A stretch of 64,000 nucleotides of DNA, from positions 32,001-96,000 of IMG/VR virus record IMGVR_UViG_3300021400_000012; one strand, 5' to 3'. A program made the position numbers and the translations under genes. The notes under the pieces were generated by a model that was not told the origin of the DNA, searched no databases, and saw nothing but the letters and a program-made list of their open reading frames with translations. Below, piece after piece: positions 1 through 64,000 of the stretch. How positions within the stretch are numbered: position 1 is the first letter of the stretch; the number at the start of each line of letters is the position of its first letter. The stretch is from a virus. Lineage: Duplodnaviria > Caudoviricetes.

Positions 1-1
1 A

Positions 2-1666
2 GCAACAGATGGTTATTTTAGCGGTGAATTAAGAGGTGCTTCTGGCACTTTTGAAGGGTCTATTTAGGCCAATAGTGGTGAAATTGGCGGCTGGGTTATT
101 AAAGAAAATGGATTATATTCAACCGCAACAGATGAAAATGAATCATCATTATTAGAACTACTTGGTGCTGAAGGCATTATTAATGCTTAGACCATTAATC
201 TTGGTACTGGCGCGCATATTAATAATTATATATAGCTTGGAAATAATGCTATTTTATATAATCCTGACAACGCTAATGGAAGAGTTTTAAGTTCTGGTGA
301 TATTTTATTATTGAATAATGGACAACTTTAGTTAGGTGATCTTTTATTAGACGGCGCGCAATCAACGATAAATGGTAATAATTGGTCAATTGACCCCGAA
401 TTTGCTAGGTTTAAAAATGTTGACATATCAGGAAAAATTTCTTCTGCTGTTTTTGAAACGACTTCCGTTTCTGCCGTCGGTGGAATTATGCTTTTTAAAA
501 CTTCTTATAAAGTAGAAAGTTTTAATAATACAACTATAATTTTAGACACTAAATATAATGGAATTGTTGGTGATAAGGTTTATTTAACTAATGCAAATGG
601 AAAATTATCTTCGTTATTATCGATTACAGCTATTAACGAAAAGCAAGTGACTTTAAATAGTCAACCTTTTTCTAATGAAACAAATGTTTAGCTTACTAGT
701 TTAATTCAAATTGGAAAGGAAATAGATGGATAGCCTCCAATTGTAATTGGTGTCAACTCTACTGATACGGATACAGGTTTTTTAAAACACCAGGGTATTA
801 CTGTTGCAGAAGTTTATGATAATGGCACTAGTACCATTAAAACTTTCTTAGGAAACCTTGCGGCTTTAAATATTAATAATGTAAATGGCTATGGTTTATA
901 TGGATCAAACGTTTACTTAACTGGATCATTAACCACTTAGGTACAAAGTACCAATAATCCATCTTATGCTGGTATTAATACATTAAATGGAGCTTCAGCA
1001 GTTAAATTCGGAAGCGAAGATAATTCAAAAATTGTATTTTGGGCTGGCTCTGAGGGTATTAATAATGACTAGATTGCGGCGGCGCCATTCTAGGTCACTG
1101 AATAGGGCTCATCGTATGCATCACGAGGTATATTTGAGGGATCCATTATTTCGCGGTCTATAATTGAAGGTTCTGTTATTAGAACGGCTCGTATTGAAGG
1201 CACTGGCGCCAACCCCGCTTTAAAAATATTAGATGCTTTAAATGGCATTGGATTTTATACTATAGAATCCAACGAAGATAAGGAAATATTTACAATTGGC
1301 ACAGAAGGTTTTCGTGCTGGAGAGAATCATTTTATTACTATTTCTTCAAATGGCCAAGTTAATTTTAATGGCAATAATATAGCAATTAACAGTTTATAGA
1401 CTAAAAATACTAGTGGAATTTCACTAAATATTTCTTAGAACATAATTCAAAGTGAATATGGTAATAATAATATGCCGAGTATAACTTTTTCATCAGAAGG
1501 TATTGATTGGAAAATTCAAAGTAATATAAATAGATTTTCTGTTACAGAAAACTTAACAACATTAAATACAGATGTTGTTACTATGAAAAAAGATGTTGTG
1601 TATGGTTAGAACATAATGAAATATGAGGCGGTTGAAAATGGATATAATTTGTATGTTTTAGAATAA
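2..1666 (+). CDS. C-terminal part of a large tail protein (5' truncated by the window; TAG=Gln)
   Basis: Frame 2 stays open to TAA 1664-1666 if TAG is read through. Gly/Ser-rich tail-type repeats (GYFSGELRGASGTFEGSI-Q-ANSGEIGGW). Confidence 0.75.
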
Positions 1667-1696
1667 TTTTCAATCGTTCTATGGGAGGTTTAGATA

Positions 1697-4600
1697 ATGG
1701 CGCAAGTACTTAAGGGTTCAGTTTCCACGCCCGCGATATCATTCGCGCATAGTGATGGATCTGGTACTAGTAATAACTATTTAAGATTAGATTGGACTGC
1801 GAAATAGAGTGGAAATAAAAGTACTATTACATGGACTTTATATTATGGTGGTAATCTTCTGTCTGGGTCTAATGGCCCTCAACGGACTCGTATTTCTCAA
1901 TGTTTGCTAAGCATTAGGTCCGTTAGTGGTGGTGGAACCATAAGCAAGACTTATTCAACTTCTTCTCCTTTAGCCATATTACCATATGATACTACTCGCG
2001 CCTTTACTTGGGCTACATTAAATACAACCACATCTTATACTGGTTCTTTTACAGTTACGCATAATAATGGTGTTGGTAAATTTACTTTATAGTTACATGC
2101 TAATATTTATGATCATGGAACTGCTGGATGGGGTGGTGGTAATGCAACAAGTTCTTCAGTTACTTTTGAATTACCGACAACAACAACAGCTTGTACGGCA
2201 CCTACCAGCGTCACTTTAACTGATGCTATCATTTTACCGAGTGGATCTTTTTCTGTTGCGTGGTCTGGCGCGAAGGCGGGAACTAATAATACTATTAGTG
2301 GTTATAGAATTTATTATACAGTAACTTCAGGCGGTACTGCTCCTACAACTTCATCAACTTACGTGGCTGTAGATTCGACTGCAACCTCAGGTAATGCTAC
2401 AATAACCTTATCAAATGCATCACGTGGATATATCGTAAAATGTGCAGTGCAAACAATAGGCAGTGCTGGCAGCTCATATTGGTCAGGACTTAAGCAAGCT
2501 AGTGGAACTGTTACGATTAATCAATTACCAGCTCCGCCAACTTTAGATTAGGCGGACTAGACAATTTTATCAACTTCTAGTGGGGTGTCTGTAACCGCTA
2601 CGGCGGGAATAGACCCAGATGGACAAACTGTAGAGGTGTGGTATAAAACAAGTTCAACCGGTACTTTAGCAAAATATACAACCAATCCTAGTATAATTAA
2701 TCCTTCTGCTGGTGATAGTGCGACTTGGTATTTTTATACTAAAGATAGTCTTGACGAATATAGTTAGCCGGCTGAAATTACAATTATTAAAAATCTAAAA
2801 CCAGTATTGACAGCGGGAACTTATACTACAGATACTTATAAAATTTAGAATTCAACTGGTGCAAGTGGTAACTATAATAAGGGATATGCTTATGGTATTA
2901 CACCAACCCTTACATGTAATAAAACATGTACATTACAAATTACTCGTTAGTATTATGTTGGTAATACAACTAGTTCAATTTCAAATTGGAATAGTGGTGA
3001 TCCGCTTGAATTTGAAGTTAATGAAGCTGGATCTGTTACTTTAAATAAATATATTCTTTATGATTAGATAGAAAGTCTTAATAGTTAGACCACAGCATTT
3101 AATTGGCGCTTAAAAATTGAAGTAATTAGAGATTTGGAAACATCGAATATTATTTATTTTCCAAGCGCGACCACCTATTATATGATTGCACCTTTTATGC
3201 AAACAACTAATATATATAATCAATTTAGTGATTTAAATGTGGCGGGCAGTAATAGCAATTAGGTATATCGACAATTGAGAGTAAAATTTCCTACTGACAC
3301 AAGCATTGATTCTACAACTTATACTGTTAGTGCTGGTAATTCTATTACTGGTATTAGTCATGCCACTTCTGTTGCCAATGATTATACTAGAATTGATATT
3401 ACTTTGCCCGAAGACATCGCTAGCGCGACTTAGATTGTTTGTACAATATCAGCTTAGACCATAGCTAGTGCCGATATTGTTAGAACAAAAACCCTATCTT
3501 CTGTTTAGGAGACTTAGGTACCCTCTCTTTCAAGTAGTCCGATATATCCAGAGTTAATTAAACCTTTTTCTACTTCTGGTATTACTGCAATTAGTATTGC
3601 AGATCCATTTGATGGAAATTCTTATTCAACTTATAACATTTTAAATTTAAATAGTATTAAATTAATAATTGCTCCAACTCAGGATAGTAGTGATAGTTAC
3701 GAAATTGCTTCAACAGTCAGCGGCGCGCAATGGACAAAAAGTAATGATGTGTTTGTTAAAAATTTTAACAATACTGATTTTTATGATTTTTCCAATCCCT
3801 GGTCTTTATCCTATGATGGAGTAAAAACATATTTTGCACGGATACAGATCACAAATGTTTTTGGTCAAATATTTTATTCTCCGTGGACAGAAGCGAGAAA
3901 ATTTGATTTTGTTGAAAATTTAAACTCTGTTACAATGGGCTAGTTTTTCTGGGCTACCAGCTCCACAGGGACTTTTAATAATTTAGATAGTGGTAATTTA
4001 GGGCGTTTATGGGAAGGAATGTATTTACGCATCCAACCCACAATTAATTATTGGACAAAAGGAACAATTACTGTTAATTTGTTCAACAATAATAACGTAC
4101 TAATCGAAACAAAAACTATTAATGCTCCTGGTGCTACAAATCGTACAGCGGTTGATACTTCTACTTCTTTTATAGTGGGGCCACTTGGCACCTTTGCCTC
4201 TACTACCGGGCAATCCTATACAGTTTCAGCTTAGTTGAATAATACGACTACTGCTACTACTTCATCAGTTACTCACAATGTAGGTCGATTAACTACCGCG
4301 GATTATAGTTTAGTATCGGCTTCGGTTTCTAAACCAGATAGCTCTTCGCATTATTATATTGATTATAATATTGCTGGATCTGATTCAGGCATTGATAGCG
4401 CTTTAAATAGTACTTATACTGTTGGACGGTATTTGGAAATTGGAGCGACTAGTAGCATTAATATTGGAGTTGCTTCGTCAACTGGACGAGTGGATACACA
4501 ATTAACTGCATGGGATGTATAGCAAGTTGATATTTTAACCTCTGTGGCAGTTAATACAAAACCGAATTCTAATGTAAATGTATCTTATACTCTTACTAAA

Positions 4601-4807
4601 CTTTCTCGTTCACCAGCAGTTACAGTATATAGTTTAGCACCAACTCTTGCCTATAGACAAAATCAAATTGGTATTAACACAAGTGTTAGCAGCGCTGATA
4701 ATGATGCTGCAGTCGTTGTCCAGGCCGCGTCTAATCATAATTTAATTAAACTGAAAGGCGCTTCAAATATTATTTATATTGATTTGGAAAATGGAAGAAT
4801 TTATTAA
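1697..4807 (+). CDS. ~1036-aa Ser/Thr-rich minor tail / virion protein with beta-sandwich-like segments (TAG=Gln)
   Basis: GGAGG RBS then ATG 1697. Track ORFs 1904, 2363, 2585, 3749, 4019, 4235 and 4544 share one frame and are separated by TAG. Ends in TAA. Confidence 0.8.
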
Positions 4808-4808
4808 T

Positions 4809-4837
4809 TTGACTTTTGAAAAATTTTTTGATATAAT
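4809..4837 (+). promoter_or_regulatory. sigmaA/sigma70-type promoter
   Basis: TTGACT-17 bp-TATAAT with extended -10 TG. Confidence 0.8.
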
Positions 4838-4870
4838 ATAAATAGTAAGATAAAGGAGACTAAAATTAAA

Positions 4871-63233: not shown

Positions 63234-63489
63234 TTGGTCTACATTACAGACCCGATCAAGTGTTTTATATTTAGCGCGAATTAAGTCGTTTGTTGATTAT
63301 ACATATGTGATGTTCAGCCGATTTTTCCATCACCCAGTACTGAATGTTATTGATGACCAAATATCGAAGCAAGTTTCTTACCAGCCCTCTTCGAGGCGCA
63401 TCAGTCAGTGGACTTTATGAAGCTGGGGAACTCCAGGAAAATTCCCTGCCAGCAAGGGTTGGGCCTTGCATATGGGCAATGGTAGCCCA

Positions 63490-63563
63490 GGAAGGTGCGG
63501 CGCGGTTCGAGTCCGCAAGTTGAAGCCGTTCGAATCGGCCAGCGCATGGTGCAAAACCTTCCA
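63490..63563 (+). ncRNA. tRNA-sized RNA with two T-arm-like hairpins
   Basis: GGAAGGT/ACCTTCC plus A, enclosing GCGG-TTCGAGT-CCGC and GCCG-TTCGAAT-CGGC. Confidence 0.5.
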
Positions 63564-63566
63564 TTT

Positions 63567-63639
63567 GCTTCTCTGGCGCAATCGGTAGCGCAACTGACCT
63601 GTAATCAGTAGGTTGAGGGTTCGAGTCCCTCGGGGAGCT
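63567..63639 (+). tRNA. tRNA-Thr (TGT)
   Basis: ACTGA-CCTGTAA-TCAGT (C at position 33) and GGTTCGAGTCC. Confidence 0.88.
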
Positions 63640-63641
63640 TT

Positions 63642-63907
63642 GGCCGGTAGACAAGCATTAAAAGTCGAAAAGACAATGTTAATCTCGGGAAAGGAAAGCA
63701 GTGGAGAGACACCACAGCGGGCGGCGGTACGCAGAGAGCGATGGTAAAAAATACCATAGAGCGCGGCGAACATTATATTGAGAACGTAACTTAACAAGGT
63801 GAGAGACCTAGTACTAAACGATAATGTAAAAATCCGCATAAGCTACCCCAGTTACAATCGTTGAATCCGGAAGAGATGGCGCGTGATTGAAACTGCACGC
63901 CTGGCCA
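63642..63907 (+). ncRNA. ~266-nt structured RNA with tRNA-like ends
   Basis: GGCCGG/CTGGCC plus A, 3' GCGTG..TTGAAAC..CACGC hairpin, multiple internal hairpins. Confidence 0.5.
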
Positions 63908-63933
63908 TGAATTAATATTGAATGAGGAAAATT

Positions 63934-64000
63934 ATGACTTGGGAAGAGTTCAAAAATCTAAAGTTTACATATGAAACGACCAACTATAAAAAGACGTAGA
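63934..64000 (+). CDS. start of a gene truncated by the window end
   Basis: GAGGA RBS, MTWEEFKNLKF. Confidence 0.45.

Follow-up and report, generated by a model that had tools for sequence, protein, structure and literature searches.

The question raised by the stretch of viral DNA considered here, positions 32,001 to 96,000 of IMG/VR record IMGVR_UViG_3300021400_000012 (64,000 nucleotides, hereafter the window), is whether the triplet TAG, a stop in the standard genetic code (code 11), serves as a sense codon in this phage, and which amino acid it then specifies. A first-pass annotation, made from the letters of the window alone, had proposed that TAG is reassigned to glutamine (Gln, Q) throughout the genome, as in translation table 15 (code 15). 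According to coding density, alignments with relatives, and a phage-borne transfer RNA (tRNA) with the anticodon CUA, this reading of the codon is very probably correct: judged from comparative sequence evidence, TAG means Gln, and the phage writes this residue with CAA, CAG, and TAG. The virus record from which the window (bases 32001-96000) is taken is one sequence of 127,574 bp, whose ends overlap by an identical 107 bp and which has a G+C content of 36.8% and no N. Pfam and PHROG scans of the genes indicate a large tailed phage, with the terminase, portal, capsid-module, and tail genes located upstream of the window. The genome of about 128 kb is that of a siphovirus-type phage, and its terminase and head module resemble the SPbeta-like / Geobacillus E3-like Firmicute type.

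Regarding coding density, which the first-pass annotation had suggested comparing between codes 15 and 11, the rise with code 15 is sharp, and there is none in the control with TGA. Open reading frames (ORFs) of at least 200 amino acids cover 44% of the window under the standard code, 76% when TAG is sense, and 46% when TGA is made sense as a control. For the whole genome, coverage by a greedy model of non-overlapping genes increases from 62% under code 11 to 90% with TAG as sense. This gain is regional, being nearly total in the structural, tail, and fibre regions and nil at 44-60 kb of the genome, where the DNA is already fully open. Code-15 genes of the fibre block abut tightly (30201-31370, 31397-32944, 32957-34879, and 34869-35453). 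ORFs had been described as joining in frame across TAG only; many such joins are indeed seen, and recoding of TGA brings no comparable gain. The five genes reported as invisible under code 11 (34869, 36270, 49217, 52944, and 53750) behave as described, none of them having a TAG-free piece longer than 90 codons.

In-frame TAG occurs in 38 of the 68 window ORFs of the code-15 model (154 codons in total) and, genome-wide, in 78 of 147 modelled genes. These codons are distributed nearly uniformly along the genes, with decile counts ranging from 40 to 18 and 8 of 289 falling within the last 15 codons; thus, they do not behave as terminators followed by short read-through tails. The modelled genes stop with TAA (101) or TGA (46), TAG ends being excluded by construction of the model. 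Gene ends are consistent with the use of TAA and TGA only; although a gene ending in TAG is impossible in the model, 11 TAG-free replication genes agree, with 9 TAA and 2 TGA stops.

The amino acid at TAG was assessed by a self-calibrated test, in which predicted proteins carrying X at every TAG were aligned by tblastn to the raw DNA of relatives, and the actual subject codon was recorded for each query codon. Ordinary Gln codons of the same phage (CAA and CAG) serve as the control in the alignment tests, and the main homologue set consists of 160 IMG/VR loci around NrdD and terminase. Full-length terminases at 75-93% identity were also obtained from a large protein database; they were excluded from the evidence, because the source pipelines may already translate TAG as Q, which would make the test circular.

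In the 160 loci, 2,972 codons are aligned to TAG, including 810 CAA, 239 CAG, and 294 TAG; GAA, AAA, and others come next, in the same order as at genuine CAA and CAG codons. Among sites with at least 5 relatives (n = 78), Gln is the plurality residue at 36% for TAG versus 45% for real Gln codons. At the site level Gln gives the best fit to the substitution profile, by 48 log-likelihood (lnL) units over any other residue. Gln and TAG together make up at least 80% of the column at 13 TAG sites. Codon 78 of the terminase, for example, is aligned to 57 Q and 10 TAG in 67 relatives, and codon 432 of the portal to 66 Q and 11 TAG in 77.

The 69 relatives that are themselves free of TAG give similar values: Gln has the plurality at 23 of 48 TAG sites and at 155 of 317 ordinary Gln codons, 668 of the 1,383 aligned codons are CAA or CAG, and Gln is favoured by 44 lnL units. 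As for seven cultured Firmicute phages with the standard code, all seven have CAA opposite TAG78 of the terminase, Q accounts for 25 of 146 aligned residues at TAG versus 87 of 443 at real Gln codons, and Gln leads by 27 lnL units. For the window genes alone (26 sites) the margin is 12.5 units, and Gln is the maximum-likelihood residue in every subset tested. Individual sites differ, and the TAG of NrdD (10367-10369) is opposite Q in 39 and A in 38 of 80 relatives. The first-pass annotation had named two outcomes that would speak against it, a missing gain in coding density with code 15 and TAG columns aligned to some other residue; the gain is present, and TAG is found to align to Gln at the same rate as ordinary Gln codons do. 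Two further sources contributed little. Alignment of paralogues within the genome (the leucine-rich repeat (LRR) triplet described below and others) places TAG on variable positions opposite many codons and is uninformative, and hardly any relatives turned up in scans with the tail-fibre genes, the UvrD-like helicase, and the 1,036-amino-acid tail protein, so most TAG-rich genes of the window lack a comparative test.

The features of the window on which the following comparisons draw are these (positions in the window):
2-4807, plus strand: two large genes for tail or host-recognition proteins, carrying 18 and 17 TAG codons in frame; the first gene begins upstream of the window.
5288-6007, minus strand: RuvC-like resolvase with 7 TAG codons.
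6007-6924, minus strand: dUTPase with an N-terminal extension and one real TAG (6151-6153) within an insertion.
8489-10411, minus strand: anaerobic ribonucleotide reductase NrdD with one TAG (10367-10369).
11937-28587, minus strand: replication block without TAG (Pol III alpha, RecJ, primase, DnaB, AAA_24, GyrA, GyrB, and small ORFs).
30201-46251, plus strand: densely packed tail-fibre/receptor-binding block (Laminin_G_3 and BspA-type LRR) with up to 11 TAG codons per gene.
36730-38304, plus strand: internally duplicated gene (56% identity over 147 amino acids).
54286-55299, minus strand: family 2 glycosyltransferase (GT2) with 3 TAG codons.
58173-58243, plus strand: amber suppressor tRNA with the anticodon CUA at 58205-58207 (ARAGORN and Rfam).
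59606-63639, plus strand: array of 14 further phage tRNA genes (tRNA scans).

Conserved motifs had been offered as examples of TAG at Gln positions, and they do not all fare equally. In the GT2 gene, the TAG of the motif SLLI*T (55165-55167) is opposite Q in 8 of 9 relatives and opposite TAG in the remaining one; it is codon 45, and in 4 of the 5 alignments listed it coincides with the Q that solved enzymes conserve in the N-terminal GT2 motif. The RuvC motif LARL*GV likewise holds, its TAG (5531-5533) being opposite Q in 35 of 39 relatives and TAG in the other 4; E. coli RuvC has R at this position. Among the other TAG codons of RuvC, the one at 5582-5584 corresponds to Q in 24 of 39 relatives, and the one at 5612-5614 is opposite a Q of E. 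coli RuvC. The duplicated halves of gene 36730 pair as claimed, TAG 36931 with CAA 37786 and TAG 36964 with CAG 37819. The other two of the four motif examples are not borne out. The dUTPase motif was read as GEKFC*L, but the Gln of GEKFCQL is encoded there by an ordinary CAG (6115-6117); the misreading may have arisen from TAGCTG on the plus strand, where CTG is the reverse complement of CAG and lies beside a neighbouring CTA codon. The only internal TAG of this gene, at 6151-6153, is real and falls into an insertion between motifs where most relatives have Ser. For the gene at 7159-7809, labelled ThyX-like, there is no Pfam match, ThyX included, and the supposedly conserved Gln of WW*MIQ lies in a variable column (L 4, Q 2, E 2, and A 2).

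The candidate decoder is the tRNA(CUA) at 58173-58243, which both ARAGORN and Rfam report (52 bits for the latter). It is 71 nucleotides long and folds into a clean cloverleaf with a 4-nucleotide variable loop, whose shortness excludes the bacterial Tyr, Leu, and Ser tRNA bodies. It carries U1:A72, G2:C71, G3:C70, G10, U35, and G73, which we take to be determinants of tRNA-Gln from work on E. coli glutaminyl-tRNA synthetase (GlnRS) and on GatCAB. To compare tRNA classes, 15 acceptor-stem and discriminator positions were matched with about 100 reference tRNAs, taken from this phage and its relatives, from cultured phages, and from a Bacillota genome bin. At these positions tRNA(CUA) is identical to a Bacillota tRNA-Gln(CUG) (15 of 15), and tRNA-Gln genes form the nearest class (15, 13, 12, and 11 of 15); the best scores of Trp, Glu, and Lys are 9, 7, and 6. 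In four complete relatives the sole BLAST match of tRNA(CUA) is a tRNA-Gln(UUG) with the same acceptor stem and discriminator base; against E. coli genomes BLAST gave no match. These data support a tRNA-Gln-type body for tRNA(CUA).

Several observations were made around this gene. The small ORF directly upstream of it (region 57868-58243, plus strand) ends with TAG and then TAA, 5 nucleotides before the tRNA, and the GIY-YIG endonuclease ORF directly downstream (58217-59239) contains no TAG. The genome has 23 tRNA genes, 15 of them inside the window, and the phage tRNA-Gln(UUG) is located 764 bases beyond the window end (L003:764-840). A tRNA-Pro(UGG) at 62184-62259 on the plus strand has U1:A72 and the same acceptor stem as this tRNA-Gln(UUG), with discriminator A rather than G, which is unusual for a bacterial-type tRNA-Pro.

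The first-pass claim that recoding is genome-wide goes too far: TAG is sense in about half of the genes, and it is absent from the 11-gene replication block and the capsid and tail-tube genes. Reassignment is thus divided along gene lines and not spread evenly over the genome. In the replication block, 11 genes with 5,134 codons contain not a single TAG, versus about 71 expected at the rate of TAG-containing genes (P about 2e-31). Two more TAG-free genes lie outside the window; their matches in Bacillus phage Kirov are annotated as the major capsid and tail-tube proteins. Since capsid and tail tube lack TAG while the terminase, portal, protease-like, and fibre genes carry it, the split is not simply one between early and late genes.

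Codon usage differs between the two groups as well. CAA and CAG together amount to 3.41% of codons in TAG-free genes and to 2.58% in TAG-containing genes, or 3.95% in the latter when TAG is added. The share of CAG among these two codons is 57% in TAG-free and 23% in TAG-containing genes, whereas AAG and GAG shift much less; G+C content at third codon positions is 0.34 and 0.25, respectively. This pattern suggests that TAG, which a single transition separates from CAG, has mainly taken the place of that codon in genes where the demand for early or very high expression is weaker. Within the fibre block, three tandem BspA-type LRR paralogues (39654-44066, plus strand) contain 11, 8, and 0 in-frame TAG codons, and the copy without TAG (42762-44066) may have arisen more recently or face other demands on its expression.

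A mechanism that fits these observations can be outlined. The infected cell would use the standard code and would probably be a gut or rumen Bacillota. The host route for charging Gln, either GlnRS or glutamyl-tRNA synthetase (GluRS) with GatCAB, would load tRNA(CUA), and the charged tRNA would then compete with release factor 1 (RF1) at UAG. Full-length products of TAG-containing genes would appear only after tRNA(CUA) has accumulated, and TAG would be kept out of genes needed early (the replication block) or at very high output (capsid and tail tube). Such use of a suppressor as a timing device is the model put forward by Borges et al. (bioRxiv 10.1101/2021.08.26.457843).

Regarding its relatives, the IMG/VR loci around the terminase (L085-L164) form two classes, one with 8-15 in-frame TAG per 1,000 aligned codons and one with at most 0.6, and some TAG-free loci have 60-69% protein identity to this phage. 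With both classes present among close relatives, recoding seems to have been gained or lost inside this clade. Of four complete relatives, the one that uses TAG has a tRNA(CUA), and no such gene lies in the tRNA regions of the two that lack TAG over the aligned stretches; the fourth, with sparse TAG in its aligned stretch, has no tRNA(CUA) in its fetched tRNA regions. In the nearest complete TAG-using relative, IMGVR_UViG_3300021387_000025, the tRNA(CUA) (L211:15241-15328, minus strand) is 88 nucleotides long and has a long extra arm and a C-rich acceptor stem. Since it is dissimilar to the 71-nucleotide Gln-type tRNA, the suppressors of these sister phages seem to be non-orthologous. A wider interpretation, which we hold only tentatively and consider somewhat less likely than its negation, is that the code flips between 11 and 15 among relatives at 60-70% protein identity, that the suppressor is a replaceable and repeatedly gained module, and that TAG use is tuned to protein output and timing.

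By terminase, the nearest cultured phage is Geobacillus virus E3 (42%), followed by Alicyclobacillus, Enterococcus, Brevibacillus, and SPbeta-like Bacillus phages; every one of them has a Firmicute host and the standard code. Terminase relatives also occur in genome bins, namely in a contig binned as Methanobrevibacter and in a Faecalibacillus bin. The former (JAFRFD010000017.1) is a 38-kb contig with a terminase 62% identical to that of this phage, from a goat-ileum "Methanobrevibacter" metagenome-assembled genome; it is probably phage DNA placed in the wrong bin and not a pointer to the host.

A number of results weigh against reading TAG as Gln or against the mechanism outlined above. At a few TAG sites a residue other than Gln is conserved among the IMG/VR relatives (R in 67 of 74, E in 28 of 32, and H in 22 of 31). 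In a PhoH-like gene outside the window (L003:8932-9753), the TAG at codon 50 is opposite TGG, encoding Trp, in 4 of 5 cultured phages; this is the sole site seen at which distant homologues conserve a non-Gln residue through a one-base neighbour of TAG. As for the tRNA, identity over its whole length does not single out Gln, its best match among GenBank phages is annotated as tRNA-Trp, and the only other match is an unannotated record. Moreover, U1:A72 is also present in tRNA-Pro and tRNA-Met of this phage, which makes the tRNA evidence supportive, not decisive. No release factor, tRNA synthetase, RF1 antagonist, or other code-change gene appears among the Pfam-scanned genes, many small ORFs being outside the scan. 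In scans for sigma-70 promoters, neither the surroundings of the suppressor tRNA nor the divergent region at 28.6-29.4 kb scored above chance. The timing model, finally, is one that we infer, and RuvC, NrdD, and the UvrD-like helicase, which are DNA-metabolism genes, also carry TAG.

These results leave three other explanations to be compared with reassignment to Gln. The ORF list is formally valid under code 11, so TAG could be only a stop, the interrupted ORFs being pseudogenes, split genes, or assembly errors. This explanation has a negligible probability: in aligned regions the frames are interrupted by TAG only and never by TAA or TGA, homology continues straight across the TAG codons, the same TAG use is seen in dozens of independent assemblies, and essential genes (terminase, portal, and tail genes of tape-measure size) would all be broken. 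A second possibility is that TAG already means Gln in the code of the host, which the phage would mirror without any phage-driven switch. This appears very improbable, given that the phage encodes its own tRNA(CUA) and that relatives as close as 60-69% protein identity have no in-frame TAG; complete avoidance of TAG in 5,134 replication codons, the capsid, and the tail tube would be pointless in a host with TAG = Gln.

It is similarly improbable that TAG is a sense codon for some other residue, such as Glu, Lys, Trp, Tyr, or Ala. Glu and Lys are the next commonest residues in TAG columns, but their share there is the substitution pattern of ordinary CAA and CAG, and Gln is ahead of both, with margins of 27-48 lnL units across three independent homologue sets and of 12.5 units for the window genes. 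The strictly conserved columns at terminase site 78 and portal site 432 hold only Q and TAG. Trp is suggested by 4 of 5 cultured phages at the PhoH site and by the tRNA-Trp label of the best GenBank-phage match to tRNA(CUA), yet it accounts for 4 of the 2,972 codons aligned to TAG. Regarding the tRNA itself, the short variable loop rules out a Tyr body, and the acceptor stem is that of Gln, not Trp, Glu, or Lys. Reassignment of TAG to Gln thus remains by far the most probable of these readings.

Besides the features listed above, nucleotide metabolism and repair are represented by a radical-SAM activase accompanying NrdD, the UvrD-like helicase, an ATP-dependent ligase, and a gene similar to deoxynucleoside monophosphate (dNMP) kinases. 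The dUTPase (6007-6924, minus strand) differs from solved dUTPases in an N-terminal extension of about 150 amino acids and an insertion of about 30 amino acids between conserved motifs 3 and 4.

TAG-recoded (code 15) phages of gut and rumen are known from the crAss-like, Lak, Garnet, Amethyst, Topaz, and some Agate phages (Borges et al., bioRxiv 10.1101/2021.08.26.457843). For crAss-like phages, Gln at TAG was shown by metaproteomics (Peters et al. 2022, PMC9523058), and according to published work a suppressor tRNA(CUA) is present in about 40% of code-15 phage genomes. The present phage is similar to them in the reading of TAG as Gln, the phage-borne tRNA(CUA), the recoded structural and tail genes, and the variable use of TAG in replication genes, as well as in the mixture of standard-code and recoded members within one clade. 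It differs from crAss and Lak phages in its SPbeta-like / Geobacillus E3-like terminase and head module, and from code-15 phages in that its major capsid and tail-tube genes are TAG-free although late, and in that no release factor gene was found among its Pfam-scanned genes.

A further comparison is offered by phAss-1 of the proposed Phassvirus group, whose genome of 136 kb has TAG in 28% of its ORFs, the terminase among them (Babkin et al. 2023, PMC10607447; GenBank OQ749652). It has three suppressor tRNA-SUP-CTA genes judged to be of Gln type, no dedicated synthetase, and many tRNA genes (PMC10607447). A similar genome size, TAG in the terminase, a Gln-type tRNA(CUA), many tRNA genes, and the lack of a synthetase among Pfam-scanned genes are shared with the phage studied here. 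The latter, in contrast, has one suppressor tRNA rather than three, and the two terminases are only 34.5% identical, and therefore the phages do not belong to the same genus. A megablast search with the Pol III gene found no match to any GenBank phage.

Among cultured relatives with the standard code, Geobacillus virus E3, Alicyclobacillus phage KKP_3916, Enterococcus phage H1, Brevibacillus phage Sundance, and SPbeta-like Bacillus phages have terminases 30-42% identical to that of this phage and a syntenic module of YonG/YonF-like terminase, portal, protease, capsid, and tail tube. Unlike this phage, they have CAA, CAG, or ordinary substitutes at its TAG sites. The E. coli supE-type amber suppressor, likewise a tRNA-Gln body with a CUA anticodon, competes with RF1 at UAG and places Gln there. 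However, supE is a mutant allele on the chromosome and acts by rescuing nonsense mutations, whereas the tRNA described here is encoded by the phage and would serve hundreds of designed-in codons.

For annotation the consequences are direct. The standard table fragments or misses more than half of the larger genes, among them those for terminase, portal, RuvC, the glycosyltransferase, and every large tail or receptor-binding protein; annotation, host-range inference, and protein clustering of this clade therefore need table 15. Recoding of TAG to Gln in phages is established in principle and is not surprising to a specialist, and the present case adds a large SPbeta/E3-like siphovirus lineage to the phages that use it. 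It also provides a clean contrast within one genome, the replication block, capsid, and tail tube versus nearly all other large genes, for considering recoding as a timing or dosage device. The more interesting points are the apparent flipping of the code among fairly close relatives, the seemingly non-orthologous suppressors, and the avoidance of TAG in the genes for the most abundant virion proteins.

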